Of a stretch of DNA of 64,000 bases, positions 3-51,691 are shown piece by piece (the first letter of the stretch is position 1; the number at the start of each line of letters is the position of its first letter). The DNA lies in the NCBI GenBank assembly GCA_035508495.1, contig DATJMX010000022.1:44139-108138 (forward strand). Reading direction: 5' to 3'. Source of the stretch: Candidatus Binataceae bacterium (lineage in GTDB: Bacteria > Desulfobacterota > Binatia > Binatales > Binataceae). Made by a program: the position numbers and the translations under genes. Below the pieces are notes generated by a model. It saw only the letters and a program-made list of their open reading frames with translations, made no database searches and had not been told where the DNA came from.

Positions 3-1526
<1,524 letters not shown>

Positions 1527-5100: not shown

Positions 5101-5484
5101 TTAGCTCGGCAGATGAACCAACTCGAGCTTGAGGCCGTCAGGATCGGTAAAAAACACGGAGTAGTAGCCGGGCGCATAGTCATACTCGCGCGGCGGATCG
5201 GTAACCGTTCCGCCGTGCGATGCGATCTCACTCGCGAGGCTGTCTATCTGAGCGCGACTTTCGGCTAAGAAGGCAATCTCGCAGAGTCCCACGCGATGGC
5301 GATGAAACGAGTCGCGATGGAATGGCGCCTCGGCCTCCTGGACCCAGAATGAACCGGCGTCGTTATAAAAACCGATGCCGCGTTTGCCCCCTTGCGGATA
5401 TTCAAATGAGCGCGAATAGCCAATCTGCAGCATGAGCCACGAGTAGAACTTTTTCGCCTCCTCGAATCGATTCACGTTTATCAT
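5101..5484 (-). CDS. VOC (glyoxalase/bleomycin-resistance/dioxygenase) family protein
   Basis: 127 aa ending in a typical FFTDPDGLKLELV beta-strand motif. Its ATG overlaps the upstream gene's TGA by 1 nt (TGATG). Confidence 0.8.
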   Translation of the reverse strand: MINVNRFEEAKKFYSWLMLQIGYSRSFEYPQGGKRGIGFYNDAGSFWVQEAEAPFHRDSFHRHRVGLCEIAFLAESRAQIDSLASEIASHGGTVTDPPREYDYAPGYYSVFFTDPDGLKLELVHLPS

Positions 5485-7520
5485 CAGATGGTTGATTGGG
5501 CTGTTGATTGGTCTGCTCCCTCGTTCTGGTCAGGCAATAATATCAACTCGGAATGTTTCGACGTGCGTTTCGAAATGGCCGCGGCAAAGGGTTCGGCCAC
5601 CAGACAGTAGATAAAGGGTATAATCGCCACCGTATATCGTCCGTACTCAAACTCGACAAATGCGCTCGAAACAATATATCCGGACGGAATTATCGCAAAT
5701 GAAAGCAAAATCATACGCTGGCGCAGGAACGGGATTGAGGCGAGGCCGGCTATAGCCAGCCAGGGAAGGAAGGTCCAGGTTGCAGCGAACTGCTGCTCCA
5801 GTCGTTCTCGCCACAACAAACTGCCCGCATGAACGCCTAGAATAGGCACCGACTCGAGTTCCGCGGTGTATTTATCCGGCACTGACCACCATGGGACCAG
5901 AGGAACTGGATTATGGAAGAATTGCGTCCATGACTGCTGCAACGAGAAAACAATGAATTGCCAGGGTGATTCGCAAATACCCTCCCAGGAAACCCGTCTC
6001 ATCAAGGCCTCGGTTTCTTCGTAGTCCAATCCCTGCTTTTTCAGAAGCGCCGCGATCTCCCAGTGGGCTTTACCTTCGGGATTCACTGGCTCGATTAACC
6101 GGAGGAATCGCGCTGTGGCAGGCGCGCTCTTATCAAGCAGAAACTGATCGGTGACGACACGATTGTACAGATGGCGTCCGAGCGAATTGGCGAGAGCGAA
6201 GGAGCCTGATCTCAATCCAAACCAGATAGTGGGCAAGGCAACTGTTCCTATGGCTATCGCGAGGATCAGGCCGAAGCGTTTGACCCCATTTATTAACGGC
6301 TCGGCGCCCAACATCACGAGAAGAATCGCCGGACCCGCGGCGGCCAACGGCACGATCCGGGCCAGTCCAGCCCAGCCCAGCAACAGGCCGCTAATGATCC
6401 CATGGCGCCTCACATGGGAGTCCCGATAACAAACCGCGAAATAGAGCGCCCCGGCCATTCCAAACAGCGCCGCGTTCTCGGACATGATCGCTTGAGGCAG
6501 AAAGAGCGTGGGAGCAGCGGCGCCCATCGCCAAGGTAGTCAGATATGCGAGCGGCTGGGCAACGCACCGCCGCAGAAGTCGAAAGCACCACACAATTGTC
6601 GCAATCATCATTACATGTTGGATCAGGGTAATGACTGAACCGACGTTGACTGCTGACACGAGATACCCAATACCAACCAAAAGCGGATAGCCCGGCGGAA
6701 AGTATGCAGGCCAGCCTTGGACATTGAATTTCAAAGTCGGAAGCTGATTCAGACTGTCGTATATCAATCCGACACACTGAGCGGACCAGACGAGAAGGTG
6801 CAGCGCACTTAGATACGCTGTTAACCAAAACTCCGTTCGTCTCCTGTCCAGACCAGGTCGAACCGCAGCAACCATGACGAAGCTCACGACTAGCCAGAAG
6901 GCGAACGGCCAGTGAGATGCCACTACCGGCGTCGGCAAGTCCACCGCCACGATAGGATCGGCTGGCAGGTGCGAACAATCATCCCCCCAAATCTTGCCGG
7001 CGTCTGTACTGATACTGAGATGTTCGCAAGGATTGCCACGGTTGAACAGAACAGCAGCACTTGTGCCGCTGAACGAAACTGATGCTGGCTCGGCCGTGTC
7101 GGAAGGATTCAATCGCGCCGCCCAGCCTGCGCGCCGCGGCCAAGCTGTCGGATCACTCCCTTCGGGATCCTTCGGACGATCTGCCGAATCCCAGCCGGGC
7201 TCCCAACTGCCGCTCAGGATCAAATCGCCGGGGCGTGCCCTGCGTCCATCAACGACCAGACGCACAACTGAAACTCCAGCGTGAGTATCTTCTGGCGTGC
7301 TGGGCCTTGACCCGGACACATTGATGGTAAATCTCGATACGTCTTTTGGCGTCGGTTCAAAAACTCCGCGGAGAGAAAGTGTAGCCGACCACGCCAGGAA
7401 GATAGCGGATAGTAAGCTGATCGTTAAAATCGCAAGCGCCGCCTTCCCGCGATAGTCGGCAAGCGCGCCGCGCATGGCATGTACAAGGCAACTTCGCGAT
7501 AGTCGATTCCTGGGCGTCAA
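5484..7520 (-). CDS. Polytopic membrane protein, GT-C-fold (PMT_2/ArnT-like) glycosyltransferase candidate
   Basis: 678 aa: one N-terminal TM helix, a ~170-190 aa non-membrane segment, then many TM helices including a YFPPGYPLLVGIGY-type loop. TTG 7520 overlaps the upstream stop (TTGA); ATG 7475 is an alternative start. Confidence 0.6.
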   Translation of the reverse strand: MTPRNRLSRSCLVHAMRGALADYRGKAALAILTISLLSAIFLAWSATLSLRGVFEPTPKDVSRFTINVSGSRPSTPEDTHAGVSVVRLVVDGRRARPGDLILSGSWEPGWDSADRPKDPEGSDPTAWPRRAGWAARLNPSDTAEPASVSFSGTSAAVLFNRGNPCEHLSISTDAGKIWGDDCSHLPADPIVAVDLPTPVVASHWPFAFWLVVSFVMVAAVRPGLDRRRTEFWLTAYLSALHLLVWSAQCVGLIYDSLNQLPTLKFNVQGWPAYFPPGYPLLVGIGYLVSAVNVGSVITLIQHVMMIATIVWCFRLLRRCVAQPLAYLTTLAMGAAAPTLFLPQAIMSENAALFGMAGALYFAVCYRDSHVRRHGIISGLLLGWAGLARIVPLAAAGPAILLVMLGAEPLINGVKRFGLILAIAIGTVALPTIWFGLRSGSFALANSLGRHLYNRVVTDQFLLDKSAPATARFLRLIEPVNPEGKAHWEIAALLKKQGLDYEETEALMRRVSWEGICESPWQFIVFSLQQSWTQFFHNPVPLVPWWSVPDKYTAELESVPILGVHAGSLLWRERLEQQFAATWTFLPWLAIAGLASIPFLRQRMILLSFAIIPSGYIVSSAFVEFEYGRYTVAIIPFIYCLVAEPFAAAISKRTSKHSELILLPDQNEGADQSTAQSTI

Positions 7521-8365
7521 CTAACTGTGCTCGCGAAATCGGCGAAGTCTGAATTTCTCAATGCCGCGACCAGTTCGGCATGATTAGCGATTAGTTTCGA
7601 ATACGGCAAATTAATCGCCTTGCGAAGCCGGACATCAGGGTGGAAATCGAATGGAACGTCGAAGCCTTTGGCAATGTCCATCAGCGGCCCCGGGGCCCGT
7701 ACGCGTTCGCCTTCCGCCGCGTCGTCGAGTTGCTCTACCAGCTCTTCGTAGCTGCAATCGATCACGCGCACGCCCGTGGAGAATCGGAGAAATGCTTTGC
7801 GATCCCGTACTATCTGACGCGCGCGTACCAGGCATTCCTCCGGAGCAATCGTGTATTTGCCGTCAATCGACATCCCCACGTAATCGTGCCAGACGCCTCG
7901 CTGCTCTGCGATCATCGCGGAGATTGCGCAGTGAATGATATTCCGACGCACAATGTGGATCGCAATTGCGTCCCTTGCTCTCAAATATTCGATGAAAAAT
8001 GGAGTATCGTCGTATTGCCGGTCAGGTGGATCGAGGCTTCGAAGCTGGTTGTACTTAATATCCAGTCCGATCGCGCTCACATCGCTCTTGTCGCCATCGA
8101 TCCAATGATTTCGAACGCGGTAGTCGACGAACGCGATATACTTGTCGAGCAGTGCCCGCGCGCGATTCGCCGATACGATCGGGCGTTCCGCCACCGGGAG
8201 CATAGCCAGGAAGTTTGCCCAGTGCGCGGGCGCAGTGCTGGGCGAAAAAACTTCGCCGAGCATCGCGATGTCGCCATTTGTGTTCAGGATCTCGCGCAGC
8301 AGGTTCGTGCCGGTCCGCTGCGCACCGACTACCACGAAGAGCAAATCTCGCCGTTTTCCGCTCAC
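7517..8365 (-). CDS. Sulfotransferase family protein (Stf0-like, PAPS-dependent)
   Basis: 5'-PSB-like loop VVVGAQRTGTNLL near the N-terminus and a 3'-PB-like HIVRRNIIHCAISAMIA segment. Confidence 0.75.
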   Translation of the reverse strand: MSGKRRDLLFVVVGAQRTGTNLLREILNTNGDIAMLGEVFSPSTAPAHWANFLAMLPVAERPIVSANRARALLDKYIAFVDYRVRNHWIDGDKSDVSAIGLDIKYNQLRSLDPPDRQYDDTPFFIEYLRARDAIAIHIVRRNIIHCAISAMIAEQRGVWHDYVGMSIDGKYTIAPEECLVRARQIVRDRKAFLRFSTGVRVIDCSYEELVEQLDDAAEGERVRAPGPLMDIAKGFDVPFDFHPDVRLRKAINLPYSKLIANHAELVAALRNSDFADFASTVS

Positions 8366-8374
8366 GTGCGACGA

Positions 8375-9229
8375 CTAGCTAGTCCTGGCGCCGATGAGCG
8401 ATCGGACCGCGAGGTTGACGCGCGCCCATGCCGACCAAAACTCTTGATTTTCTGATCCTGCGTCGGTCGTAGCGAGCCGTCGCAGCCACAAATAAGCTTC
8501 GCGCGTCAGCGTGCTGATTCCCAGGATCGTCTCGAAGTCAAACTCGCTGAATTCACTGTGACGGAGCTCCGCGGCGAGGAATTCGTTGATAAAGTATTCG
8601 ATCTCATTCGAATTGGCTTCACCGGGAAGCTTTAATGCGGACGAAATTCGATCCAGCTCGCTGCGCGCGTCGTCCATGAGGTAATCGTAGTCGGCCACGA
8701 CGAAAGGCCGGGTCCTGATTAAATGCAAATTCGGAACTGAGTATGCGAGCCACAGCTTGTGAGCGGTGGGCGCGTCCATGTATTGACGTTGGAGCAGCGA
8801 GCTGGCGACGCTGAGCGGATTGCGAACGGCGACCAGGTAGTTGTCCTCGACCCCTATCGTTTCCAGCACCGAGCGCCAGAAGGGCAGAAGCCGAATGGTG
8901 CGTGGATCCTTGAAGCCCCACAACGGATGGCTGGCGAAGTTCCGCCGGAGATGATCGACGGCGAGATCCTTTATGATTGCGACGGCGGGCTTTTCGCAGA
9001 AGTCGTCGTCGATTAAAGCTACGTCTTCCCAGCGAAGACCCAACGTTGAGAGAAGACGTTCGTTCAAAGCCACAATCGTGCGATCTTCCCAATAGCCAGT
9101 TGGATTATCCGGCTTAGTCTCAAGGAAATCATCGCCGAGATATACACCCAGCGCTTTGAGGCCGCGCGCGAAGGCGCTGGTGCCACTGCGATGCATCCCG
9201 AGAACTACAACAGCGCGTGATTTAGGCAT
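8375..9229 (-). CDS. Sulfotransferase family protein
   Basis: VVLGMHRSGTSAF (5'-PSB-like) and LVAVRNPLSVASSLL (3'-PB-like). Start is ATG 9229 or TTG 9241. Stop lies 9 nt upstream of the next sulfotransferase's start. Confidence 0.75.
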   Translation of the reverse strand: MPKSRAVVVLGMHRSGTSAFARGLKALGVYLGDDFLETKPDNPTGYWEDRTIVALNERLLSTLGLRWEDVALIDDDFCEKPAVAIIKDLAVDHLRRNFASHPLWGFKDPRTIRLLPFWRSVLETIGVEDNYLVAVRNPLSVASSLLQRQYMDAPTAHKLWLAYSVPNLHLIRTRPFVVADYDYLMDDARSELDRISSALKLPGEANSNEIEYFINEFLAAELRHSEFSEFDFETILGISTLTREAYLWLRRLATTDAGSENQEFWSAWARVNLAVRSLIGARTS

Positions 9230-9297
9230 GGCGCAAACCAACCAGCCCTGGACGCTGGACTATCGGCCGCGTGTCGACGCCGGCCTTTCTTGCCGCT

Positions 9298-11418
9298 TCA
9301 CCCTGTCACCGCGGGACCCTGCTCGCCGCGCGAAAGCGGGCTGCCCAGCATCACATCGCGCTCGAACTTGAGGCCCTGGCTGAAGAGAATCGCTTTCGAA
9401 AGCGACCTGCTGACCGAGGGTGAAATTTTACCGTTGAGCGTGGTGTAAGGCCGAACGCTCCGCACCGCGTTGACCAGTGAATGCACCATGCTCTCGGCAT
9501 CGACATCCTCCCGATAGCCGACCAGGACTTCGGGAATCGTCTCTATCGTGTGCCCCATCAGCGCAGCCTTGGAAAAGATTTCCCAGTCGTCCAGGGTTCC
9601 CACGGCGACGTCGGTAAAACCGCCGATACGATCGAACGTTTCGCGGCGCATGAGAGCATTGGGGCTGCCAAAACAATTAATGAATGCTCCAGTCGCGGCG
9701 TCGCCGCCGAGGAACGGCCGCCGCGAATGCTCGAAGCGCTCGGACGTCGAGCCAACGTAGAAACTCAAAGTGGCTGTTACTACGTCGGCAGCAGTTCGCT
9801 GCGCGACTTGAACAAAAATCGAAAGTGCCGAGGGATTGAGCAGCAGAGTGTGGTCGTCTATGAAAAATAGATATTCGCCCCGAGCTTCGCGCGAAGCGAC
9901 GTTGCGCGCTGCCCCGATGTCCCAGCTTGGGCGCGCGAACCTCTTCACCGTTTCGAAGTTCAGGTTTGCGCCGTGATTCTGGTTCGACCCCGGATCGTTG
10001 CTGCCGCACTGGATCAGGATCAGTTCAAGGTGCGGATAGTCCTGTTGCCGCAACGATTCCAACGTGGACGCGATACCGTTCTCGTTGCCACTGTACGCGA
10101 AACATATGCTGACCAGTGGAAAGATCGATTCGGTGCGTGCGCCGTTACGCGAGCGCCGCGGCGCACTATTCTTTGGCGCCGCAGCCAGACTGGTATGCCA
10201 TCGCACCCATCTTCGTTCGATGTCCTCGAACGCATCCGAGGGGCGTGCAGTTGGTCCGCCCGATTTGAGCGCGGCGCGGATTCGCTCGGCCATGACATCC
10301 GCGCGCGGTTCGAAGCAAACCTTTTCCTTGTCCTCGGGCGACATGATTTCCGGAATCCCGCCAATGTTGCTGGCCAGGAACGGAATACGCGCGCCGATAC
10401 ATTCGAGCACGGTATTCGGGAAGTTATCGCCGAGCGACGAAATGACCGCGAGGCGTCCGGGCTGACGCAGATACTCGATCGCGCCGCGCTGATTCTTGTT
10501 GCAGACGACGTGCCAGGGCAGCGACCATCGCCGCGCCCGATCGCTGATATACGCAATGCTGGAGCGGCCGTAGATCTCGGTTTCCTTGCCGAGAAAGGTA
10601 ACCTCGAAGGGTCGTTCACCCGGATTCACTGATAGTTCGTCCAGCGCGTCGCAAAATACCTTCAGACCTTTCCTGATCTCGAGGCGGCCGAAGAATACTA
10701 CTTCACGGATTTCCTGGCTTCTGGCTAGCGACGGCCGTTCCTGGTCGAGTATTCCTTCTGGAAGAACATATGGAGCTATGTAAGTCTGCTCGGGAAGCTG
10801 CCATCCGTTGCTTTGCACCCAGTCGAGCAGGTAGCGGCTGGGACTGGTTACTATATCGGCGGCCGCGACGCTGACTCGCTCCATATAGTCAATTTCGAGT
10901 TCGCCGATATTGCGCAGGAAATCCTGGTTGCCCTCCTTTACCCAGAAGGTGGGTCCATGCGTACTTACTACGAAGGTGACATTGCGGAACGCCAGTCCCT
11001 GGCGCTTTGCAAGCAGGCTATAAAATGCAATTCCCTGGCATTCCGGGAAGTGAATTATGTCGAAATCGGCCTGATGCTCCTTGAGCCAGTTGTAGGCATG
11101 ATAGGAAACGCTCGAGGCCCACGAGGCGTGAATGCGCGGATTGTGCGGCAGCGGCAACTGGACGAGGTTGATCCCCTTGCGCGTGCGATAATGCTCGGCC
11201 CAGTCCACGATGTTGCCGTCATTGCACACCGAGCCCTGCAGATAGAGGACGGTGACCTCCTGACCCGCCCGGCGCAGCGCGTCGGCAAGGCTCGTGTAGG
11301 CGGTGCCGATACCCCCGTTGCGAGTTGGTCCTTCGATTTCCCAGGTCGCGATGCAAACGCGCGGGCGCCTGCTGGTGGTCACCTCGACTTCGGGTAACGT
11401 GGGAAACATCACTGCCAC
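9298..11418 (-). CDS. Bifunctional glycosyltransferase (N-terminal GT4 fused to C-terminal GT2)
   Basis: GT4-like N-terminus (CIATWEIEGPTRNGGIGTAYTSLADAL) with an E-x7-E region (GGIPEIMSPEDKE). GT2-like C-terminal half (VSICFAYSGNENGIASTLESLRQQDYPHLELILI, FFIDDH). Confidence 0.8.
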   Translation of the reverse strand: MAVMFPTLPEVEVTTSRRPRVCIATWEIEGPTRNGGIGTAYTSLADALRRAGQEVTVLYLQGSVCNDGNIVDWAEHYRTRKGINLVQLPLPHNPRIHASWASSVSYHAYNWLKEHQADFDIIHFPECQGIAFYSLLAKRQGLAFRNVTFVVSTHGPTFWVKEGNQDFLRNIGELEIDYMERVSVAAADIVTSPSRYLLDWVQSNGWQLPEQTYIAPYVLPEGILDQERPSLARSQEIREVVFFGRLEIRKGLKVFCDALDELSVNPGERPFEVTFLGKETEIYGRSSIAYISDRARRWSLPWHVVCNKNQRGAIEYLRQPGRLAVISSLGDNFPNTVLECIGARIPFLASNIGGIPEIMSPEDKEKVCFEPRADVMAERIRAALKSGGPTARPSDAFEDIERRWVRWHTSLAAAPKNSAPRRSRNGARTESIFPLVSICFAYSGNENGIASTLESLRQQDYPHLELILIQCGSNDPGSNQNHGANLNFETVKRFARPSWDIGAARNVASREARGEYLFFIDDHTLLLNPSALSIFVQVAQRTAADVVTATLSFYVGSTSERFEHSRRPFLGGDAATGAFINCFGSPNALMRRETFDRIGGFTDVAVGTLDDWEIFSKAALMGHTIETIPEVLVGYREDVDAESMVHSLVNAVRSVRPYTTLNGKISPSVSRSLSKAILFSQGLKFERDVMLGSPLSRGEQGPAVTG

Positions 11419-11508
11419 AGCTCAATCCTTCCTGGCCTTTTCATCTCGCGGCTTCGCGCGACGTCGCACGCGCCGCGGGTGTTCCTTAGCAGGTCTATTG
11501 TTCTGTTT

Positions 11509-11524
11509 CAATGAAGTTTCATTG
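11509..11524. promoter_or_regulatory. AT-rich palindrome CAATGAA-GT-TTCATTG in a divergent promoter region (candidate operator)
   Basis: Perfect 7-bp inverted repeat with a 2-nt spacer, read directly. Lies between the divergent glycosyltransferase operon and the ABC exporter. Confidence 0.3.
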
Positions 11525-11659
11525 GCGAAGTGATGCCAAAGCATCGCCTGCTCGCAGATCAGCGCAAGCGCTGCCGTTATGATGACGATTCCATCCGACG
11601 GGTCTTTTGTAACGCCATCGAATCTTGTTCTGCGCGCCGACTCAACATACCGTGGCGCA

Positions 11660-12391
11660 ATGCTGATCGAGGTCGAGCACCTGACCAAGGCCTTCAAGGA
11701 CTTCATCGCGGTCAACGACGTTACATTTTCCGCCGCCGAGGGCGAGATCGTCGGCCTGGTCGGCCCGAACGGCGCGGGCAAGAGCACCACCATTCACATG
11801 ATGCTCGGCCTCATCACTCCGAGCGCCGGAACGATCCGTTTGTTGGGCAAGCGTCTCGAAGAGGACCGCGAGACGATCCTGCAAAATCTGAATTTCAGCT
11901 CCCCTTACACGGCGTTCCCGCCGCGTCTCACCGTGCTCGAGAATCTCACGGTCTTTGCGCGAATCTACAAAGTGGAAAATCCGCGCTCTGCGATCATGGA
12001 ATTGCTCGAGCGATTCGAAATCGCTCACCTCAGAAACAAACCTGTATCGCGATTGTCGTCGGGCGAGACTACCCGGGTTGGGTTGTGTAAAGCGTTTATT
12101 AATAAGCCGCGGCTTTTATTGCTCGACGAGCCGACTGCGTATCTCGATCCGCAGGCCGCCGTGCAGGTGAGAGAAATCCTCCTGGATATGCAGAAGACCT
12201 CACGAACTACAATTCTATATACCTCCCATAACATGCGCGAGGTTCAGCGCATGTGCAATCGAATTATATTTCTTAATCGCGGCCGAATCGTCGTAAGCGG
12301 CACGCCCCTCCAGATCACTCGTGAAGTACTGCGAGAGGAGCGCGAGCATCCTGCGCTCGAGGAAGTATTCGTCCATGTTGCAAGGCGCTAG
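11660..12391 (+). CDS. ABC transporter ATP-binding protein (DrrA/NodI-like, ABC-2 subfamily)
   Basis: Walker A GPNGAGKST, signature LSSGETTR, Walker B LLLLDEPT. ATG 11660 gives the typical MLIEVEHLTKAF N-terminus; the upstream 27 codons of the listed ORF were rejected. Confidence 0.9.
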   Translation: MLIEVEHLTKAFKDFIAVNDVTFSAAEGEIVGLVGPNGAGKSTTIHMMLGLITPSAGTIRLLGKRLEEDRETILQNLNFSSPYTAFPPRLTVLENLTVFARIYKVENPRSAIMELLERFEIAHLRNKPVSRLSSGETTRVGLCKAFINKPRLLLLDEPTAYLDPQAAVQVREILLDMQKTSRTTILYTSHNMREVQRMCNRIIFLNRGRIVVSGTPLQITREVLREEREHPALEEVFVHVARR

Positions 12392-13181
12392 CCGGATGCG
12401 GATGCATCGTATCGTCGCCATAATCGTGCGGCACCTCTACGAGATCCGCCGCAATGCGAATCACGTTACGAACATGATCTACTGGCCGATCATGAACATC
12501 ATGGTCTGGGGCTTCTTTACTATCTATCTGAGGCGCGACGCGATGCGCCCGGGCCTGGTGAGTTGCCTGCTCGGCGCGGTAATCCTGTGGGGGTTGTTCA
12601 ATGGCTTTCAGCGCGACATGGCAGTTGGCTTCCTCGACGAGCTATGGTCGCGAAACCTGGTGAATCTATTCGCCTCGCCCCTCAGTGTTCCGGAATACGT
12701 CACCGGCCTCGTCGCGGTAAACGCGATCAAGGTGATGATCGGTGTCGCGTTTGAAGCGGTAATCGCATGGATGTTTTACCACTTCAACATTTTTCCGATG
12801 CTGCCGCAGTTCGTGCCCTTCATCCTCAATCTGGCATTATTCGCGCTCGCGATCGGCGTCGCAGTGACCGGGCTGATTTTTCGTTATACGACGAAGTTTC
12901 AGACGCTGGCATGGAGTTTCGCCGGCGTGCTGATGCCGCTATCGTGCGTCTTCTATCCGCTTGATGCTCTGCCCGGGTTCCTTCGCCCCATCGCGTGGCT
13001 GCTGCCGACCACTCACAGCTTCGAGGGGATGCGTCAGATTATCACTCGAGGTGAGTTTTCGATTGCCCACTTCAACTGGGGTCTCGCACTCAACTTCTGC
13101 TATTTCGGTCTCGCGATGATCTTCTTCAGCGCGATGTTCGAATCGGCCAAGCAGCGTGGGCTGCTGGTAAAGATGGAATAG
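12375..13181 (+). CDS. ABC-2 type transporter permease (DrrB/NodJ-like)
   Basis: About six predicted TM helices and an ABC-2-like N-terminus (IVRHLYEIRRN). ATG 12375 overlaps the ATPase stop (12389-12391); ATG 12396 is an alternative. Confidence 0.85.
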   Translation: MLQGASRMRMHRIVAIIVRHLYEIRRNANHVTNMIYWPIMNIMVWGFFTIYLRRDAMRPGLVSCLLGAVILWGLFNGFQRDMAVGFLDELWSRNLVNLFASPLSVPEYVTGLVAVNAIKVMIGVAFEAVIAWMFYHFNIFPMLPQFVPFILNLALFALAIGVAVTGLIFRYTTKFQTLAWSFAGVLMPLSCVFYPLDALPGFLRPIAWLLPTTHSFEGMRQIITRGEFSIAHFNWGLALNFCYFGLAMIFFSAMFESAKQRGLLVKME

Positions 13182-14075
13182 TCATTCGACGTCGAGCGTG
13201 CGACCCAGGCTCTCGAAGAGGGCGGAGCTCATCACACCGCGCGGCGGCGCGACACCATTAAATAGCTTGAAAGCGAGCTCGCCCTGGTTCACCAGCATGC
13301 CCGCGCCGTCGGCGGCGCGCCGTCCCGCTTCGACGGCCGGCTCGAGAAACGGCGTGGGCTTCGCCGCATAGATCAAGTCATAGAAGAAGCAGTCTTCGGC
13401 CGCGGCCTCGTAGTTGAGCCGCGCGAAGCGGCGCGTCGTCAGGCCCATCGGTGTCGCGTTCAGAATGCCGTGCGCGCCCGCGAGCAATTGAGCGTCGAAC
13501 AAGGCATCAAGCCCGCGAACCTCGATCCTGGGCGCGCGGCGAAATGATTTGGCAATGCGCCGGGCCAGGCGCGCAGCTCGCGCCCGGGTTCGATTGGCGA
13601 TGACGATTTTGGAAACGCCGATTCTTAAGCACGCGACGGCGGCAGCGGCAGCACCGCCGCCCGCGCCAATCACGATCGCGACTCCGCCCGCGAGCCCTGG
13701 CGCGCGCTCGCGAAGATCGAGCTCGAGGCCGCGGGCATCAGTGTTGTCGCCGTAAAGCCGTCCCTTGCGGTTCGCGACGCAATTCACCGCACCCAGGACC
13801 CGCGCTTCGGCGCTCAGTTCGTCCACCAGCCGTACCGCTCGTTCTTTGTGCGGCACCGTCAGGTTGACGCCGAGGATGCCGAGAGCAGTGATGGAGCGCA
13901 AAGCGGTCGGCAATGCGGCCGGCTTCACGTGGAACGGAACGTAGATGCGATCCAACTCGAGCGCTGCATATGCAGCGTTGTGCATCGCCGGGGATCTCGA
14001 ATGATCAACCGGATCGCCAAAGATGCCGGTGAGTCGGGTCGTTCCCGCGATCTTGTGAAAGGCGGCCGATGTCAC
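13182..14075 (-). CDS. aroE: Shikimate dehydrogenase
   Basis: LTGIFGDPVDHSRSPAMHNAAY plus a GAGGGAAAAAVA Rossmann motif. GTG 14075 overlaps the pyrE TGA (GTGA). The Arg-rich 171-aa extension of the listed ORF overlaps pyrE and was rejected. Confidence 0.85.
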   Translation of the reverse strand: MTSAAFHKIAGTTRLTGIFGDPVDHSRSPAMHNAAYAALELDRIYVPFHVKPAALPTALRSITALGILGVNLTVPHKERAVRLVDELSAEARVLGAVNCVANRKGRLYGDNTDARGLELDLRERAPGLAGGVAIVIGAGGGAAAAAVACLRIGVSKIVIANRTRARAARLARRIAKSFRRAPRIEVRGLDALFDAQLLAGAHGILNATPMGLTTRRFARLNYEAAAEDCFFYDLIYAAKPTPFLEPAVEAGRRAADGAGMLVNQGELAFKLFNGVAPPRGVMSSALFESLGRTLDVE

Positions 14076-14635
14076 GCGAGTTCTTTCGCGGCGCGCTGGA
14101 GCTCTTGGCCCTTGTAAACTGACTGTATACTCAGGCCCTCGCGCGCGAATGCCTCGGCGCCGCCCTCCTGCCGATCGACGAGAAATAGCGCTGCGATGAC
14201 GATCGCGCCGCTTTCGCGCACAGCCTTCAGTGCGTCGATAGTCGAGCCGCCGGTCGTGATCGTATCGTCGAGCACGGCCGTCTTGAGCCCGGATTGGAAG
14301 GCGCCTTCGATCTGCTTGCCCATTCCATGGGTCTTCGCTTCCTTGCGCACGAAAAAGCCGCGCATCGTGACATTGTGTCGATACGCGGCGGCGAGAATCG
14401 CGTCGGTCACCGGAATCGCCGCCGCCGCCATCCCGCCGATTTGCTCGACACCGGCCCCGACCGCCATCTCGAGCATCAGCTCGCCAGCCAGAAATGCCGC
14501 GCGCGGCAAGAACATTGCGCGCCGGCAATCGAGGTAGTAGTTCGACTTCTTCCCCGAGGCGAGTGTGACTTCGCGTTCGACGTAGCACTCGCGGATGAGA
14601 GTCTCGAGCAATTCTTTGCGGTAGTCGGAGTTCAT
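14072..14635 (-). CDS. pyrE: Orotate phosphoribosyltransferase
   Basis: 187 aa with the PRPP-binding motif VLDDTITTGGS and LASGKKSNYYLDCR, typical of PyrE. Confidence 0.9.
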   Translation of the reverse strand: MNSDYRKELLETLIRECYVEREVTLASGKKSNYYLDCRRAMFLPRAAFLAGELMLEMAVGAGVEQIGGMAAAAIPVTDAILAAAYRHNVTMRGFFVRKEAKTHGMGKQIEGAFQSGLKTAVLDDTITTGGSTIDALKAVRESGAIVIAALFLVDRQEGGAEAFAREGLSIQSVYKGQELQRAAKELA

Positions 14636-14682
14636 CGCTGACGAATCTTAGCCGATGTCACCACGCGGACAACAGGATTAGA

Positions 14683-15288
14683 GTGGGCATCGAGCAGAAC
14701 AAGCCTCAAATGATTCCGCCGCGCTATTATCTGATCCTGTTGGCCGCCTTGGTGGTCGAGAGAATATTCGAACTCTACCTGTCCAAGCGCAACGCATCGC
14801 GTGCATTTCAACGCGGCGCGAGCGAAGCGGGGCAGAACCATTACAAGGTGATGGTCGTGCTCCACAGCGCGTTTATCGCGTCGTGTGCCTTGGAGGCGGT
14901 GTTCTTCCCGCGGGCAATCGCACCGGCGATAGGGTGGACCGCGCTCGGCGCCGAAGTCCTCGCGCAGGCCCTTCGTTACTGGGCGATCGCCACGCTTGGC
15001 GAGCGCTGGAACACGCGCATCATCGTCACGCATTCGGCAGCGCCTGTGACCGGCGGACCCTACAGGCTCGTGCGGCATCCGAACTACGTCGCCGTCGCGA
15101 TCGAGATTGCCGCCGTGCCGCTGATCGGCGGCGCAGTGGTGACGGCGATCGTCTTCTCGATCGCAAACGCATTTCTGCTCGCGGTCCGGATCCGCGCCGA
15201 AGAGCGCGCGCTTGGGACATCGTGGGCGGCGGCCTTCGATTCGCGACCACGATTCATGCCGGCGCTCCATCGCGGCAAGCAGCGGTGA
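14683..15288 (+). CDS. Isoprenylcysteine carboxyl methyltransferase (ICMT/PEMT) family membrane protein
   Basis: Multi-TM protein with the family signature GPYRLVRHPNYVAV...RIRAEERAL. GTG 14683 or ATG 14710. Confidence 0.8.
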   Translation: MGIEQNKPQMIPPRYYLILLAALVVERIFELYLSKRNASRAFQRGASEAGQNHYKVMVVLHSAFIASCALEAVFFPRAIAPAIGWTALGAEVLAQALRYWAIATLGERWNTRIIVTHSAAPVTGGPYRLVRHPNYVAVAIEIAAVPLIGGAVVTAIVFSIANAFLLAVRIRAEERALGTSWAAAFDSRPRFMPALHRGKQR

Positions 15289-15335
15289 GGCGCGTCGCTT
15301 CATAGCGCGGACGCGCACCTGCTATCATCCGGGTC

Positions 15336-16019
15336 GTGTTTTTCGCACCATTCGTCTTCTTCTGGGCGCTGATCTTCTTCCTCTTGCTGGCTTTCCTGTT
15401 TGCGCTGATTCAGATCCACATCATCAACTATGCGTTCACGATGGTGGGGCTGCCGCCGTCGCTGGCGATGCTCGCGCTGCTGGCTGCGCTGATTGGCAGC
15501 TACATCAACATCCCGATAACGCGCATCGAAAGTAACGCGCCGCGCACCGGGCCGCTGGTGCGCAGCTTCGGCGTCGCGTACCGCGTCCCCACGCATCTGG
15601 CGAGCGGCTCGACCGTGATTGCGATCAATGTCGGCGGAGCGATCGTTCCGATCCTGATATCAGCCTACGTCCTGTTCCATTGGCCGGCGATAATCGGTGC
15701 GTCGATCATCGGCACCGCGGTCGTGACCTTCGTCGTGCATCGCTTTGCGCGCCCGATCCCGGGCCTCGGAATCGCCACGCCGATGCTGGTGCCGCCGATC
15801 GCCGCTGCGCTGGTCGCCTACGTCATGGACGCGACCGTCGGCGTTCATCATCGCGACGCCGTGGCGTTCATCAGCGGCGTGATGGGCACGCTCATCGGCG
15901 CCGACCTGCTCAACCTCGATCACATCGCGGGCCTCGGCGCGCCAGTCGCATCGATCGGCGGCGCCGGCACCTTCGACGGCATCTTCCTGACCGGCATCGT
16001 CGCCGTCCTGCTCGCATAG
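15336..16019 (+). CDS. DUF1614-like integral membrane protein
   Basis: 227 aa, very hydrophobic. The N-terminus (FALIQIHIINYAFTMVGLPPSLAMLALLAALIGSYINIPI) resembles DUF1614 by recall. Confidence 0.55.
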   Translation: MFFAPFVFFWALIFFLLLAFLFALIQIHIINYAFTMVGLPPSLAMLALLAALIGSYINIPITRIESNAPRTGPLVRSFGVAYRVPTHLASGSTVIAINVGGAIVPILISAYVLFHWPAIIGASIIGTAVVTFVVHRFARPIPGLGIATPMLVPPIAAALVAYVMDATVGVHHRDAVAFISGVMGTLIGADLLNLDHIAGLGAPVASIGGAGTFDGIFLTGIVAVLLA

Positions 16020-18054: not shown

Positions 18055-18131
18055 CGCGGGGTGGAGCAGTCTGGTAGCTCGCCGGGCTCATAACCCGGAG
18101 GTCGAAGGTTCAAATCCTTCCCCCGCAACCA
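18055..18131 (+). tRNA. Initiator tRNA-fMet (anticodon CAT), CCA encoded
   Basis: 77 nt, CGCGGGGTGGAGCAG...GGGCTCATAACCC...GGTTCAAATCC...CCCCGCAACCA. Has the C1xA72 mismatch and three G-C pairs closing the anticodon stem, both initiator hallmarks, and is near-identical in layout to E. coli tRNA-fMet. Confidence 0.95.
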
Positions 18132-30095: not shown

Positions 30096-30755
30096 ATGGC
30101 CCAGATGGACGTTTACGAAGCGATGCGCACGCTGCGCGCGGTGCGCCGGCTCAGGCCCGATCCGATTCCCGCCGACGTGCTGCACCGCGTGCTCGAGGCC
30201 GCGACCTTTGCACCCACCGGCGGCAATCAGCAGCCGTGGCGAATCGTCGCGGTCCGCGACGGCGCGAAGAAGCAGCGCCTGGGCGAGCTCTACGCCGATC
30301 GCTGGCACAACTACACCAAGCGCTATCGTCCGTTCCCGGCCGACATGCCTGCCGATGCGCGCGAGCGCACCGAGCGCACACTCATGGCCGGCGACTTTCT
30401 CGCTGATCATTTTGGCTCGACGCCGGTCATCGCGATGTTTTGCTTCAATCCGAAGTTCATGGCGATCACCGATTCCGAGCAGAAGAATCGCCCATCGGTT
30501 GTCGGCGGCGGCTCGGTCTACACCGCTGTCGAGAATCTCCTGCTGGCGTGCCGCGCCGAGGGTCTGGGATGCGTATTGACGACGCTGCTCTGCGAGCGCG
30601 AGCCCGAGGTGCGCGCGCTGCTCGGCATTCCTGATCCGTGGTACACGGCAGCCGCGATCCCGATTGGCTATCCGGTCGGACGCGGACATGGCCCGCTCAT
30701 TCGCCGCCCTGTCGATCAACTGGTGTATGCCGATTCGTGGGGCGCGAAGTTCTGA
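30096..30755 (+). CDS. Nitroreductase family protein
   Basis: GGAGG SD. RAVRRLRPDPIPADVLHRVLEAATFAPTGGNQQPWR is the classic nitroreductase N-terminal motif. Confidence 0.9.
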   Translation: MAQMDVYEAMRTLRAVRRLRPDPIPADVLHRVLEAATFAPTGGNQQPWRIVAVRDGAKKQRLGELYADRWHNYTKRYRPFPADMPADARERTERTLMAGDFLADHFGSTPVIAMFCFNPKFMAITDSEQKNRPSVVGGGSVYTAVENLLLACRAEGLGCVLTTLLCEREPEVRALLGIPDPWYTAAAIPIGYPVGRGHGPLIRRPVDQLVYADSWGAKF

Positions 30756-32404
30756 GGCTTGCGCCGGATTCATTGAAATCGCGACACGCACTCGCGGCGC
30801 TGCTGGTCGTCGTGGGATTTTGCGCCGGCCTCTGGCCGCTCGCGCATGATTTTTATTTCGCGCACGTCGATGAGCATCTGTACGCCGACGCCTCGATTCG
30901 CATGGTGCAGTCGGGAGACTGGGGCACTGCGTACTACAACACCGGCTACCCGCGCTTTCAGAAGCCGATTCTGACCTACTGGCTGATAGCTGCGAGTTAC
31001 CGGGCCTTCGGGATCAGCGCGCTCACCTCGCGGTTGCCCTCGATACTCGCGGGCGTCGTGACGCTCCTAATTACTCACGCGCTCGCGATACGCGTCACGC
31101 CGCGCGCTCCGGCCGCGATTCTCGCGATGCTCATCCTGGGGAGTACGCCGGTTTTTATTCTCGCGGCGATTCGCGCCAATCCCGACATTTTTCTCGCGAT
31201 GTTCATCGCGTGGAGTGTGTACGGATTTTTCGGCCTGATGTTCGCTGAGACGCCGTCGGCGGGCGACGGATGGCATGCGTACCTCGGCGCTGGACTCGCG
31301 ATCATGGCCAAGGGTGTCCCAGGTCTGATCTTTCTCGCATACATATGGCTCTTCGCCGCGACGTTCGTCGCCGACCGGCGGCGTCGCGTGATTCCGCTGA
31401 TTCCGCTGGCGGTCGGACTCGCGATTCCCGTCACATGGTTCCTCGCGACGCTGCACGCACATGGCAGTTTGTTCACGCACGTGATGTTCAACGACCAGGT
31501 GCGGGCGCGCATCTCGCTCGGAATCGTCGCAACGCCGCTACGCATGCTGGCGATGGTTGCGCAATACGTACTCTTCTTCCTGCCGTGGTGCATCGTGCTG
31601 ATCGCGGAGCGAGTTGCCCAGGCCCGAGCCGATTCAATCATGAGATCGGAGTTCGCGCGCTTCGCGGCAGGATTCGCCTTGCTCTATGCGATCGCGTTCG
31701 GCCTGAATCCCACGATGAATGGGCACTATCTTCTTCCCGCGTGCCCACTGCTCGCTGTCGTGATTGCCGGGGCGCTGGCTGAGCTCGATTCGCACGCCTC
31801 GCGTGTCGCTCTGGAAGCGGCTGCGGCCATCGTCATGGTGGCGCTGGCGGCATTCTCCATCTTCGCGATGCTCCTGAACCGCGACGGCTTGACGATTACC
31901 AGTGGGATGGCGTGCGCGGCGTTCGCCGTCTCGATTTTGTTGGCGATCCGACGCATCAGGACTTCCGACTTGCTGATGCGGCTGGCGGTCGGCATTTTCC
32001 TTTTCTTTCCGCTCGCGAGTGTTCTGCTCCGGCCATGGCTGTTGCCGGATTTTGGACAGCAGGTCGTGGCCGCGGTTGGACCCACCGCCTCGCGTATATC
32101 TTTCGTCGGGCCCGAACCGCTTGCGTCTTATGTTCGCCTTGCGTCGGGTGGAACCACGCAGGTGATGAGCGGGCCCGATCTGAGCAGCGCGCTTTTGTCG
32201 GACCTGCCGATAATCGCGCCCAAGTCAGACGCGGAGCTGCTCGAATCGCATGGCTATGCGATCGCGCCTGTCGGCGGCGCGATCGAGCGAGAGTCTGTTA
32301 GCGACGTGGCCCGAGCGGTGTTTCGCGTCGACTTCGGCAACTTCCTCGAATCGTCGAAGCAAGGATTTGTGCTTGCGATTCCAGCATCGCCTCCGAAACC
32401 ATGA
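30737..32404 (+). CDS. GT-C glycosyltransferase, ArnT/PMT (GT39/GT83)-like
   Basis: HVDEHLYADASIRMVQSGDW...PRFQKPILTYWLIA is the ArnT/PMT-type first periplasmic loop; more than 10 TM helices. Start uncertain: GTG 30737 (19-nt overlap with the upstream gene) or TTG 30773. Confidence 0.8.
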   Translation: MGREVLRLAPDSLKSRHALAALLVVVGFCAGLWPLAHDFYFAHVDEHLYADASIRMVQSGDWGTAYYNTGYPRFQKPILTYWLIAASYRAFGISALTSRLPSILAGVVTLLITHALAIRVTPRAPAAILAMLILGSTPVFILAAIRANPDIFLAMFIAWSVYGFFGLMFAETPSAGDGWHAYLGAGLAIMAKGVPGLIFLAYIWLFAATFVADRRRRVIPLIPLAVGLAIPVTWFLATLHAHGSLFTHVMFNDQVRARISLGIVATPLRMLAMVAQYVLFFLPWCIVLIAERVAQARADSIMRSEFARFAAGFALLYAIAFGLNPTMNGHYLLPACPLLAVVIAGALAELDSHASRVALEAAAAIVMVALAAFSIFAMLLNRDGLTITSGMACAAFAVSILLAIRRIRTSDLLMRLAVGIFLFFPLASVLLRPWLLPDFGQQVVAAVGPTASRISFVGPEPLASYVRLASGGTTQVMSGPDLSSALLSDLPIIAPKSDAELLESHGYAIAPVGGAIERESVSDVARAVFRVDFGNFLESSKQGFVLAIPASPPKP

Positions 32405-32424: not shown

Positions 32425-32781
32425 TTGACCGGCGGTTAAAGTGGCCGCGAACGGGCGCTGTCGTCCGATAATTGACGCCAGCACAAACGCCTTCGCTTTA
32501 ATCGCGCTCGCGAGCGTTCGATCGTAGCGGAATCTTAACTTACTCCGAGCCTCGCGAAATGAAGTTTTTTCTTTCTTCACACGTCACTTGTTTCGAAAGA
32601 TGGCATCTAACCCTGAGTTTGACCCATCTGGCCTTGTGTGCGCGATGTAAAACTCCAATTCGCGCGCCATCGCAAAGATGGCAGCAAAATTGCTGGTGAC
32701 TGCTGGATCTCAAATTGAATATCGACTCTTAGGCTGAACCGGACCGCATTGGGGGCGGAGCACCGCCCGCAGGAGAGAGAC

Positions 32782-33723
32782 GTGCCACTCTTGAAAACGG
32801 CGAGCGAGCTTCGTTGCGCGATCGTATTGGCCGGTGGGGATGGCCAGCGTCTGCGTCCTCTGACCCGCCGAATCACTGGCTTCGAGATCCCCAAGCAGTT
32901 CTGCCCGATACTCGGCAACGAGACCCTGCTTTCGCAGACGCGGCGCCGGATTGCGCTGATGTTCAAGCCGGCCGAGACGATGCTGTTGCTCAATGGCGAG
33001 CATGAAGATCTTTACGCATCGCACGTCGGTGGCCTGCCCGAGACGAATCTCCTCGTTCAGCCTGCAAATCGCGGCACTGCCGCTGGTATCCTGTATTCGC
33101 TGCTGCGAGCCGCAGATCGCGGCGCCGAGACCATCGCCTTCTTTCCCTCCGATCATTACATCAGCGACGACGAGCGCTTCATGCGTCACGTCGAAGTCGC
33201 GTTCGATGCCGTCCATGAGATGCCGGGGCTCACTGTGATGCTCGGGATCCCGGCCGAAGGCCCTGAAGTCCAGTATGGCTGGATTGATCCCGCCGGCAGC
33301 ACCTCGATGCCGACGCCGTTCGCCTTCCACGGGCTACGTGGAATCCGACGATTCTGGGAAAAACCATCACCAGCTATAGCTGACCAGCTTTTTCGCCGGG
33401 GCTGCCTGTGGAACAGTTTCGTGATGGTCTCGGGCGTGAGCAACATGCTCGAGCTGTTCAGGCGCTCGGTACCGGAGCTGTACAGCAAGTTCGACGCGGT
33501 CTGGACCTCGCTCGGCACGCGCTCGGAGCATCGCGTGATGCGCTCGCTATATCCCAACCTGCCGAATGTCGGGTTTTCGACCGAGATTCTGGAGCGTTTC
33601 TCGCCGGAGATGGGCGTACTGCCAATCCGCGGCATCGAGTGGAGCGATCTCGGCGAGCCCGCTCGCGTGATGGAGATCCTGGGCCGCCGCGGCCTCTCCC
33701 CGGCCTGGCTGCAGCAAGCCTGA
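32782..33723 (+). CDS. Sugar-phosphate nucleotidyltransferase (mannose-1-phosphate guanylyltransferase-like)
   Basis: GTG 32782 lies 6 nt after AGGAG. AIVLAGGDGQRLRPLT is the NTP-transferase signature. Confidence 0.8.
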   Translation: MPLLKTASELRCAIVLAGGDGQRLRPLTRRITGFEIPKQFCPILGNETLLSQTRRRIALMFKPAETMLLLNGEHEDLYASHVGGLPETNLLVQPANRGTAAGILYSLLRAADRGAETIAFFPSDHYISDDERFMRHVEVAFDAVHEMPGLTVMLGIPAEGPEVQYGWIDPAGSTSMPTPFAFHGLRGIRRFWEKPSPAIADQLFRRGCLWNSFVMVSGVSNMLELFRRSVPELYSKFDAVWTSLGTRSEHRVMRSLYPNLPNVGFSTEILERFSPEMGVLPIRGIEWSDLGEPARVMEILGRRGLSPAWLQQA

Positions 33724-50771: not shown

Positions 50772-50781
50772 GGTTGCAGCG

Positions 50782-51687: not shown

Positions 51688-51691
51688 GCCG

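Follow-up and report, generated by a model that had tools for sequence, protein, structure and literature searches.

Polymerases with two glycosyltransferase (GT) modules have been described in pathways that depend on an ATP-binding cassette (ABC) transporter and in which the glycan is capped with an anionic group before export (PMC10629545, PMC11231755). In the Klebsiella O1 system, WbbY is the D-galactan II polymerase and has two GT modules, of which the alpha-1,3-Gal module is inactivated by the E318A substitution (PMC10629545), and WbbZ adds a terminal pyruvate before the ABC export (PMC10629545, PMC11231755). Here we examine, against this background, a cluster of seven genes in a 64,000-nt stretch of DNA from a Candidatus Binataceae bacterium (the whole stretch is called the window). 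The cluster encodes a WbbY-like GT4-GT2 fusion protein, two predicted sulfotransferases (ST1 and ST2), the ATPase and the permease of an ABC-2 transporter, a membrane glycosyltransferase of the GT-C fold, and a VOC protein. The first five of these recur together in other genomes, and the reading that we cautiously favour is that they are a self-contained cassette for the ABC-dependent assembly of a sulfated glycan, to which the lineage of the window has added the GT-C and VOC genes.

The likeness to the Klebsiella O1 system begins with the GT4-GT2 protein, which is a colinear, full-length homolog of WbbY. Both gene sets are compact and, it appears, mobile (wbbYZ is flanked by insertion sequences (IS), while the cassette has a low GC content and lies in varied contexts), and in both a polymerase, here a candidate one, is paired with a cytoplasmic enzyme that adds, or here would add, an anionic group before ABC export. 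The cassette differs in having two predicted sulfotransferases where O1 has a pyruvyltransferase dependent on phosphoenolpyruvate, in a transporter of another ABC-2 clade, in a DX7E rather than an EX7E motif, and in bringing its own exporter but no primer or adaptor genes of the rfb type. Because of the homology to WbbY, the closest known system is ABC-transporter-dependent glycan assembly with a dual-module polymerase and an anionic modification before export. It is not Nod-factor synthesis, to which the first-pass annotation of this DNA had likened the locus. What the cluster shares with the Nod-factor system is a sulfotransferase (NodH there) beside an ABC-2 exporter whose ATPase clade includes NodI, and sister cassette loci in other genomes carry methyl- and carbamoyltransferases. 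Unlike that system, the cassette lacks NodA, NodB and a membrane chitin-oligosaccharide synthase of the NodC type, and equivalents of NodA, NodB and NodC were found neither in the cluster nor in the scanned window genes nor in the sister loci. With a GT that is WbbY-like, the resemblance is limited to the clade of the ATPase.

Sulfated polysaccharides of bacteria are made by loci such as the xss genes for Synechocystis synechan, those for the capsules of Vibrio sp. KMM 8419 and Cobetia marina, and the predicted wps-1 locus of Actinoplanes (PMC8205485, PMC11641403, PMC11766843, PMC13390465). As in the window, sulfotransferases stand there among GT and export genes, with two sulfotransferase families in one cluster. 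Compared by description, synechan and wps-1 use the Wzx/Wzy pathway, whereas the cassette has one dual-module GT and a DrrA/ABCA-like pump; it is further set apart from the sulfated-polysaccharide loci by its size of five genes and by the uncharacterised family of ST2. A different precedent is that of Halobacterium salinarum, where two sulfotransferases (Agl30 and Agl31) modify distinct sugars of a tetrasaccharide on dolichol phosphate, which is then flipped and transferred by the GT-C enzyme AglB (PMC11980604). The logic matches that of the extended window cluster (two sulfotransferases, lipid carrier, flippase and GT-C), but that system is archaeal, uses dolichol phosphate as its carrier and has a flippase other than an ABC-2 pump, and Agl30 and Agl31 are annotated as proteins of the alkaline-phosphatase/sulfatase type rather than as sulfotransferases with the motifs for 3'-phosphoadenosine 5'-phosphosulfate (PAPS). 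Finally, in the GtrA/GtrB/GtrC and Klebsiella gmlABC systems a GT-C enzyme acts in the periplasm on an exported glycan, as the GT-C protein of the window might do; gml-like genes adjoin wbbYZ on plasmid pKPN-a41. In the window cluster, by contrast, a GtrA-type flippase and a membrane-anchored GT2 of the GtrB type are both missing, which leaves no evident source for a polyprenyl-phosphate sugar donor.

The five proteins of the cassette

Open reading frames (ORFs) were located and their junctions read directly in the window, and domains were assigned by the curated cut-offs of Pfam and NCBIfam. We begin with the two sulfotransferases. ST1 exceeds two Pfam thresholds, those of Sulfotransfer_3 (32.5 bits, cut-off 27) and Stf0 (26.9 bits, cut-off 22). 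Its family keeps the motifs GAQRTGTN and HxVRRN...AIS across 29 sequences, with G14, R17, T18, G19, T20, R140, N142 and S149 each at least 90% conserved. ST2 itself has no Pfam or NCBIfam match. Among its relatives, however, 22 of 29 match Sulfotransfer_3 (best E 3.8e-9) and 15 of 29 match Sulfotransfer_1, and a homology search returns 2,341 homologs. GMHRSGTS, PDNPTGYWED, KDPRTxRLLPFW and RNPxSVAxSL show no variation among the 29 members aligned; they include the residues M12-H-R-S-G-T-S18, R136-N-P138, V141, A142 and S144.

The PAPS signature, known from the structures of SULT, TPST and Stf0 enzymes, consists of a 5'-phosphosulfate loop (R/K-x-G-[ST]-[ST]) and an R...S motif for the 3'-phosphate, and both elements are present in ST1 and in ST2. 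The fold of ST2 agrees with this. Eight of the nine Foldseek matches of its AlphaFold (AF2) model (predicted local distance difference test, pLDDT, 88) at E<=0.001 are sulfotransferases, with TPST 8w5z (2e-5), the OLS sulfotransferase 4gox and TPST2 3ap3 as the best, followed by a CurM domain and SULT2A1, and with Stf0 lower; the TPST matches are from tick and human. The TM-scores are only 0.4-0.48, and P-loop kinases appear further down the list. ST1 and ST2 belong to the PAPS-type sulfotransferase superfamily, and sulfation itself is a prediction; the assignment of ST2 draws on profile matches at the level of the family, on the invariant PAPS motifs and on the fold of a predicted model. The call of two sulfotransferases in the first-pass annotation is borne out by the profiles in this way, directly for ST1 and through the relatives, motifs and fold for ST2, and the motifs that it quoted (QRTGTNLL/RRNIIHCAIS and HRSGTSAF/VRNPLSVASS) are real and conserved over 29 sequences in each family.

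Are the two enzymes products of a recent duplication? A BLASTP comparison of ST1 with ST2 gives only E 0.086, around the P-loop. There is no significant similarity beyond that loop; recent paralogy is therefore rejected and the two are regarded as distinct sulfotransferases, not duplicates. In 8 other loci ST2 and ST1 are fused in frame, with ST1 at the C-terminus of ST2, in a single ORF of 567-628 aa. Neither protein has a hydrophobic segment (none, and no transmembrane (TM) segment, is predicted in the GT4-GT2 and VOC proteins either), and PAPS is available in the cytoplasm, so any sulfation would take place there. For ST1, ST2, the GT-C protein and the permease, direct comparison with the PDB, by single sequence and by family profile, gives only chance matches to TPR and ABCG proteins. 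In cultured bacteria, relatives of ST2 with 33-36% identity, annotated as sulfotransferases, are found in Cereibacter, Paracoccus and Burkholderia; the one on plasmid pA of Cereibacter 2.4.1 lies inside an ABC-type polysaccharide locus with a second sulfotransferase.

We turn to the glycosyltransferase, where residues 35-387 match the GT4 and GT1 families of Pfam and residues 446-598 match GT2, in agreement with the two modules named by the first-pass annotation. The protein is colinear with the WbbY of Klebsiella and E. coli, with 36% identity over residues 20-664 of 706 (E 9e-119). A translated search of plasmids finds full-length homologs in Azospirillum and on plasmids of Klebsiella, Citrobacter, Enterobacter and E. 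coli. On pKPN-a41 the WbbY-like gene is divergent from a pyruvyltransferase gene, flanked by IS elements and near genes for gtrA, a GT2 and a large membrane protein; in E. coli SMS-3-5 the pair stands beside a complete rfb2a cluster (ABC permease, RfbB, a DUF4422 protein, glf and GTs). The target is named WbbY from the divergent wbbZ, the IS flanks, the neighbouring rfb2a genes and E318 in the EX7E motif. The corresponding GT4 motif of the cassette family is D331-x7-E339 (E318-x7-E326 in WbbY), with the Asp invariant in 27 orthologs, and in the same orthologs the GT2 motifs D521-D522-H523 (DDH) and D611-W612 (DWE) are invariant or nearly so. These features suggest a WbbY-like protein with a retaining GT4 and an inverting GT2 module, a candidate polymerase. 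Its gene is found in every cassette locus.

The transporter is assigned by ABC_tran for the ATPase (E 3.6e-31) and by ABC2_membrane for the permease (E 2e-13), in which hydrophobic segments are found. The NCBIfam models that fit the ATPase best are drrA, RbbA, GldA and NodI, all of them far under their cut-offs (drrA 185.6 bits against 312; NodI 151-158 bits against 424-549), and its best PDB matches are the nucleotide-binding domains of ABCA4, ABCA1 and ABCA3 (E ~1e-50); Wzt, TarH and KpsT are not among the 60 best. The permease scores 23 bits with drrB (cut-off 223) and does not match NodJ. The ATPase would thus sit in a DrrA/NodI/ABCA-like clade, the nearest one with a name, while missing the NodIJ and DrrAB cut-offs. 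Of the DrrAB/NodIJ-like pair proposed in the first-pass annotation, then, the ABC-2 assignment and the clade of the ATPase stand, whereas the NodI, drrA and drrB cut-offs are missed and NodJ is absent. With 270 aa the ATPase lacks a C-terminal carbohydrate-binding module (CBM). Its identity is 28% to the O2a Wzt, which works with WbbY in nature, and 29% to the ATPase of the Cereibacter capsule locus, and 56-72% to the ATPases of other cassette loci; the permease has 65-74% identity to 13 orthologs, all of about 262 aa. The permease family, compared as a profile, resembles neither the O2a Wzm (hhalign probability 0.2) nor any permease in the PDB. With 28% identity to Wzt in the ATPase and a permease unlike Wzm, the transporter is rejected as a Wzm/Wzt partner of WbbY.

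The cassette in other genomes and the added genes

Does this set of genes occur elsewhere? A scan with one genome per GTDB species yields 80 loci with an ST2 relative, all in metagenome-assembled genomes (MAGs). They come from Binatota ('delta proteobacterium'), Eremiobacterota, Terriglobia, Acidobacteriaceae, Chthoniobacterales, Phycisphaerales and Actinomycetota, and from single Caballeronia, Mycobacterium and cyanobacterial bins, at least six phyla overall. By tblastn and clustering, about 30 MAG loci (in Binatota, Acidobacteriota, Chthoniobacterales and Phycisphaerales) have the GT4-GT2, ST2, ST1, ATPase and permease genes together, with 45-72% identity, and the closest relatives of the cassette among the species-representative genomes are Binatota MAGs (ST2 58-64% identical). 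At least five gene orders occur. They include the divergent order of the window, which recurs in about 20 loci, as well as ST2-ST1-ATPase-permease-GT, GT-(ST2-ST1 fusion)-ATPase-permease, ATPase-permease-GT-(ST2-ST1 fusion) and convergent layouts. The flanks vary between loci and hold unrelated housekeeping genes. From the varied orders and phyla, the differing flanks and the low GC content, the five-gene cassette appears to be horizontally mobile. In one Acidobacteriaceae MAG an IS transposase (DUF772, DDE_Tnp_1; L037:6636-7733) lies between the ATPase and GT4-GT2 genes.

Some cassette loci carry further genes, for a Methyltransf_24 protein (19 loci), an unknown 380-aa protein (12), a carbamoyltransferase (9) and SxtJ (6); none of these accessory genes is in the window. 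The block of six to eight genes that the first-pass annotation proposed for a synteny search is therefore narrowed: five genes recur in about 30 loci, and the GT-C and VOC genes are outside the conserved unit. Its remark that glycan sulfation is rare in bacteria fits the literature on cultured bacteria but not the ST2 family, with 2,341 matches and MAGs of at least six phyla. A literature search for sulfotransferases in Binatota found no papers.

In one locus of a Caballeronia MAG (L038:4273-6555) ST1 is replaced by a 760-aa protein in which a sulfatase domain (with SGSH_C) is joined to a sulfotransferase domain. The fusion protein could both add and remove sulfate, and it lends independent support to the sulfate chemistry of the cassette. 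A number of Eremiobacterota MAG loci (L030, L031, L033, L035, L063, L071, L077, L079 and others) have ST2 relatives without adjoining GT4-GT2 or ABC genes; in 11 of them the ST2 relative is followed by a 101-aa Rieske protein and then by a 714-aa protein of the penicillin-amidase family. The substrate of these ST2-family members may be something other than a glycan.

The GT-C protein scores below threshold with PMT_2 (18.8 bits, cut-off 26.1). Its AF2 model (pLDDT 86) opens with a TM helix, followed by a beta-sandwich at about 62-195 and a multi-TM core, and Foldseek matches it to EmbA/B/C, AglB, ArnT, Pmt1/2/4, STT3 and AftA with probabilities of 0.99-1.0 and global TM-scores of 0.2-0.33. D255, invariant in 29 sequences, is in a loop with two short helices after the TM helix 226-247; this loop (oriented by the positive-inside rule) and the beta-sandwich are predicted to face the periplasm. 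The family is small (37 homologs), and many members have a precomputed PMT_2 or GT87 match. The VOC protein matches PF00903 over residues 1-122 (E 4.7e-11; 43.6 bits, cut-off 20.6) and reaches no NCBIfam equivalog cut-off. Both proteins had been named correctly in the first-pass annotation, the former now by its modelled fold and Foldseek and the latter by PF00903.

The GT-C and VOC genes are missing from all of the approximately 30 other cassette loci and are common only to two near relatives, L090 and L096, which share the whole arrangement of the window, flanks included; VOC stays beside GT-C only there (83% identity in L090). Membership of the two genes in the conserved module is rejected on this absence. 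Between the window and L090, GT4-GT2 and DJ-1 are 93% identical, ST2 85% and VOC 83%, with ST1 and GT-C at only ~70%. ST1 and GT-C have thus diverged more quickly than the genes around them, a pattern to be expected of genes that determine a variable surface structure. Homologs of the GT-C protein (49-52% identity) also occur in two unrelated contigs, 4 nt downstream of a sulfotransferase gene (L087) or of a GT2-methyltransferase gene (L091). Both clusters hold ST2-family members (28-38% identity), more Sulfotransfer_1 genes and methyltransferases; L091 also has a full-length GT4-GT2 ortholog (39% identity), and L087 an MsbA-type ABC exporter. We read the GT-C protein as a periplasmic partner that recurs beside sulfated-glycan clusters but is not a fixed part of them. 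On the JGI contig of L087, a further pair of large membrane proteins, of 471 and 502 aa, is encoded at 12899-15988 (minus strand); neither has a Pfam match on record, and we guess from their hydrophobic N-termini that they are membrane glycosyltransferases.

Gene layout and genomic setting

The seven ORFs lie where the first-pass annotation had placed them (Table 1), and the junctions read in the sequence agree with the tight coupling it described. The GT4-GT2 gene ends with the TGA at 9298-9300, and the gap to ST2 is 68 nt with the ATG at 9229 or 56 nt with the TTG at 9241. The homologs begin at the MPxSR position, and so the ATG is the likely start and the TTG an unlikely one. Nine nucleotides separate the ST2 stop (TAG) from the ST1 start (GTG 8365), the ST1 stop overlaps the TTG start of the GT-C gene as TTGA, and the GT-C stop overlaps the VOC start as TGATG, an arrangement of translational coupling. 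The public gene call starts the GT-C gene at an ATG 45 nt further downstream, which leaves a 41-nt gap after ST1. For the permease, homologs point to the ATG at 12396 and not to the GTG at 12321.

Table 1. Features of the cluster, in window coordinates
Feature	Position	Strand	Remarks
VOC protein	5101-5484	-	127 aa; PF00903
GT-C-fold membrane glycosyltransferase	5484-7520	-	678 aa, or 663 aa from ATG 7475
ST1, predicted cytoplasmic sulfotransferase	7517-8365	-	282 aa; Sulfotransfer_3 and Stf0
ST2, predicted cytoplasmic PAPS-dependent sulfotransferase	8375-9229	-	284 aa; family motifs, fold; alternative start 9241
GT4-GT2 fusion, WbbY-like, candidate polymerase	9298-11418	-	706 aa; Pfam and WbbY homology
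Divergent intergenic region between the GT4-GT2 and ABC operons	11419-11578		promoters presumed, by inference only
ABC transporter ATPase	11579-12391	+	270 aa; ABC_tran
ABC-2 permease	12396-13181	+	about 261 aa; ABC2_membrane; longest ORF from GTG 12321

The GC content of the cluster (0.568) is the lowest among all 8-kb spans of the window (mean 0.614, standard deviation 0.021). Housekeeping genes flank it, for DnaK, DnaJ, an AraC/DJ-1 protein and a DJ-1 protein on one side and for AroE, DUF1614 and a thiolase on the other. A consensus scan for promoters and terminators finds nothing above the shuffled expectation and no sigma-70-like site in the divergent intergenic region; the k-mers that such regions share are only motifs common to closely related Binatota loci. 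The sole Rfam match in the whole window is a tRNA at 18055-18128. No PAPS-synthesis domain is present in the window ORFs that were scanned (most, not all, of those of at least 200 aa, with shorter ones outside the scan), which agrees, over these ORFs, with the earlier observation that genes of the cysDNC type are lacking.

Several other parts of the window deserve a short description. A second, unrelated GT-C protein (30638-32404, plus strand; PMT and PMT_2, E ~1e-12) is encoded 17 kb from the cluster and is followed by a gene of the sugar-nucleotidyl-transferase type (32749-33723, plus strand); this pair could supply or use lipid-linked sugars. An ORF that matches NAD-GH (PF10712; 477-1853, minus strand) is antisense to DnaK (348-1526, plus strand) and is almost certainly a shadow ORF, not a gene. 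In the 468-aa ORF at 13182-14588 (minus strand) the shikimate dehydrogenase domain starts only at residue ~186, which means either an over-extended start or an unassigned N-terminal domain. The genes at 49722-56129 (plus strand), for a MoxR AAA ATPase, DUF58 and BatA/VWA-domain proteins, form an operon of the aerotolerance (Bat) type.

Proposed function, rival readings and significance

According to the reading that we favour, the soluble WbbY-like protein would work at the cytoplasmic face of the membrane and alternately add two sugars, one by the retaining GT4 and one by the inverting GT2 module, as its homology suggests. The acceptor would be made by host machinery and would probably be lipid-linked, and the outcome would be a glycan with a disaccharide repeat. 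ST2 and ST1 are expected to sulfate this glycan before export, at two positions or sugars or at the chain end, with activity and substrate both predicted. The ATPase and the permease, strictly co-conserved with the other three genes, would carry the sulfated product across the inner membrane. Only in the lineage of the window would the GT-C protein, with a polyprenyl-phosphate-linked donor, decorate the glycan after export or attach it to an acceptor in the envelope; its fold and its repeated location beside sulfotransferase and GT clusters point to such a step. PAPS and the primer or acceptor would be supplied by genes elsewhere in the genome. In substance, the biosynthesis and export of a sulfated glycoconjugate predicted by the first-pass annotation is retained as a predicted locus, while its unit, its analogue and its remark on rarity are revised.

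A number of observations weigh against this assignment. The transporter is outside the Wzm/Wzt/KpsMT/TagGH clade that exports known polymers, and nearest to it are the lipid and lipo-oligosaccharide exporters ABCA, DrrA and NodI. An initiating phosphoglycosyltransferase and a coiled-coil terminator are missing from the cassette, the ATPase carries no CBM, and a polymeric product is predicted only. In the GT4 module an Asp stands where WbbY has E318, the Glu needed for its alpha-Gal module, and with 36% identity neither the sugar specificity of WbbY nor its UDP-Gal donor nor its processivity would seem to be transferable. PAPS-synthesis genes were found neither among the scanned window ORFs nor in the checked flanks of the sister loci. 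Eremiobacterota homologs of ST2 (50-55% identity) stand in contexts unrelated to glycans, so the ST2 family is not tied exclusively to the GT4-GT2 pathway. The GT-C family is found alone among housekeeping genes in several other genomes, no donor-synthesis gene like GtrB, ArnC or DPM1 is identified in the cluster, and every cassette locus found is from a MAG.

Since the ATPase clade is not that of Wzt and there is neither a CBM nor a coiled-coil terminator, a small lipid-linked or amphiphilic product is kept as a serious rival, and we hold it to be possible, though clearly less probable than a sulfated glycan assembled by the cassette. Each GT module would then act once on a lipid acceptor, each sulfotransferase would add one sulfate to a glycolipid or lipo-oligosaccharide, and the pump would export an amphiphile, as NodIJ does with Nod factors or DrrABC with mycobacterial lipids. 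In favour of this are the DrrA/NodI/ABCA-like ATPase, the permease unrelated to Wzm and the lack of an initiating phosphoglycosyltransferase, a chain-length ruler and a CBM, but the ATPase falls far short of the curated NodI and DrrA cut-offs, and the GT is homologous over its full length to an enzyme proven to be a polymerase, and both modules of the GT appear intact. Genes like those for Nod decoration do occur elsewhere (Methyltransf_24 in 19 loci, carbamoyltransferase with SxtJ in 6-9), yet O-antigens of ABC-dependent pathways are just as typically methylated or decorated in similar ways (PMC11231755), and no acyltransferase, deacetylase or lipid-synthesis gene is part of the cassette. The GT-C protein invites a different idea, that a short sulfated glycan is built on polyprenyl (pyro)phosphate, flipped by the ABC transporter and transferred en bloc by the GT-C protein to a protein or the cell wall; the enzyme would then behave as an oligosaccharyltransferase or ligase rather than as a glycosyltransferase for side chains. 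The oligosaccharyltransferases AglB and STT3 are among its best Foldseek matches, but Emb, ArnT and PMT, which use single sugars on monophosphate carriers, match equally well. Its gene is coupled to ST1 (by the TTGA overlap or the 41-nt gap), its homologs in L087 and L091 tightly follow a sulfotransferase or GT gene, and Halobacterium offers the precedent of a sulfated lipid-linked tetrasaccharide transferred by AglB; against this, no GT-C gene lies near any of the approximately 30 cassette loci, members of the family occur by themselves elsewhere, and an acceptor cannot be named. We regard such a glycosylation system as unlikely.

Even lower in our estimate, and very improbable, is that ST1, ST2 or both are P-loop kinases or non-catalytic scaffolds, with a product that is phosphorylated or unmodified. 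The lack of a Pfam match for ST2, its low TM-scores of 0.4-0.48 and the kinases lower in its Foldseek list would allow it, but both proteins have the R-[ST]-G-T loop and the downstream R-N...S and neither has the Walker-A GK[ST], ST1 exceeds two sulfotransferase thresholds, 22 of 29 ST2 relatives match Sulfotransfer_3, and in one locus a sulfatase-sulfotransferase fusion replaces ST1. As for a chance neighbourhood of genes with no joint function, no promoter or terminator signal stands out. Five of the seven genes are nevertheless syntenic in about 30 other loci, which is why we do not take their adjacency for chance; they recur in several phyla and in different orders, with fusions and translational coupling, and this reading, to which we give next to no credence, is refuted by synteny as far as comparative genomics can do so.

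The preferred reading of a cassette for sulfated-glycan assembly can be carried further. The cassette might make a polyanionic glycan that is new for bacteria, with a disaccharide repeat, alternately alpha and beta, from the WbbY-like polymerase, one sugar or position each for ST2 and ST1 to sulfate, a likeness to carrageenan or glycosaminoglycans, and export by an ABC-2 pump of the ABCA/DrrA type in place of Wzm-Wzt. This proposal is speculative and, in our judgement, rather doubtful. If it were true, such a glycan would be an overlooked common component of the envelope or matrix of Binatota, Acidobacteriota, Verrucomicrobiota and Planctomycetota, and the five genes would be a portable route to the production of sulfated glycans.

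In papers on cultured bacteria, sulfated polysaccharides are treated as rare outside cyanobacteria and a few marine isolates, whereas cassette loci are, in the genomes surveyed, common in uncultured soil bacteria and conserved in several of their abundant phyla. The ST2 family, with more than 2,300 members and uncharacterised, is a clear target for enzymology. If the favoured reading is true, an ABC-2 clade other than Wzm/Wzt would be tied to glycan export, and a small, self-contained gene set would become a candidate for the engineering of sulfated glycans. Sulfated surface glycans would then be widespread in soil bacteria, with a bearing on the aggregation of soil, cation binding, recognition by phages and predators, and sulfur turnover.

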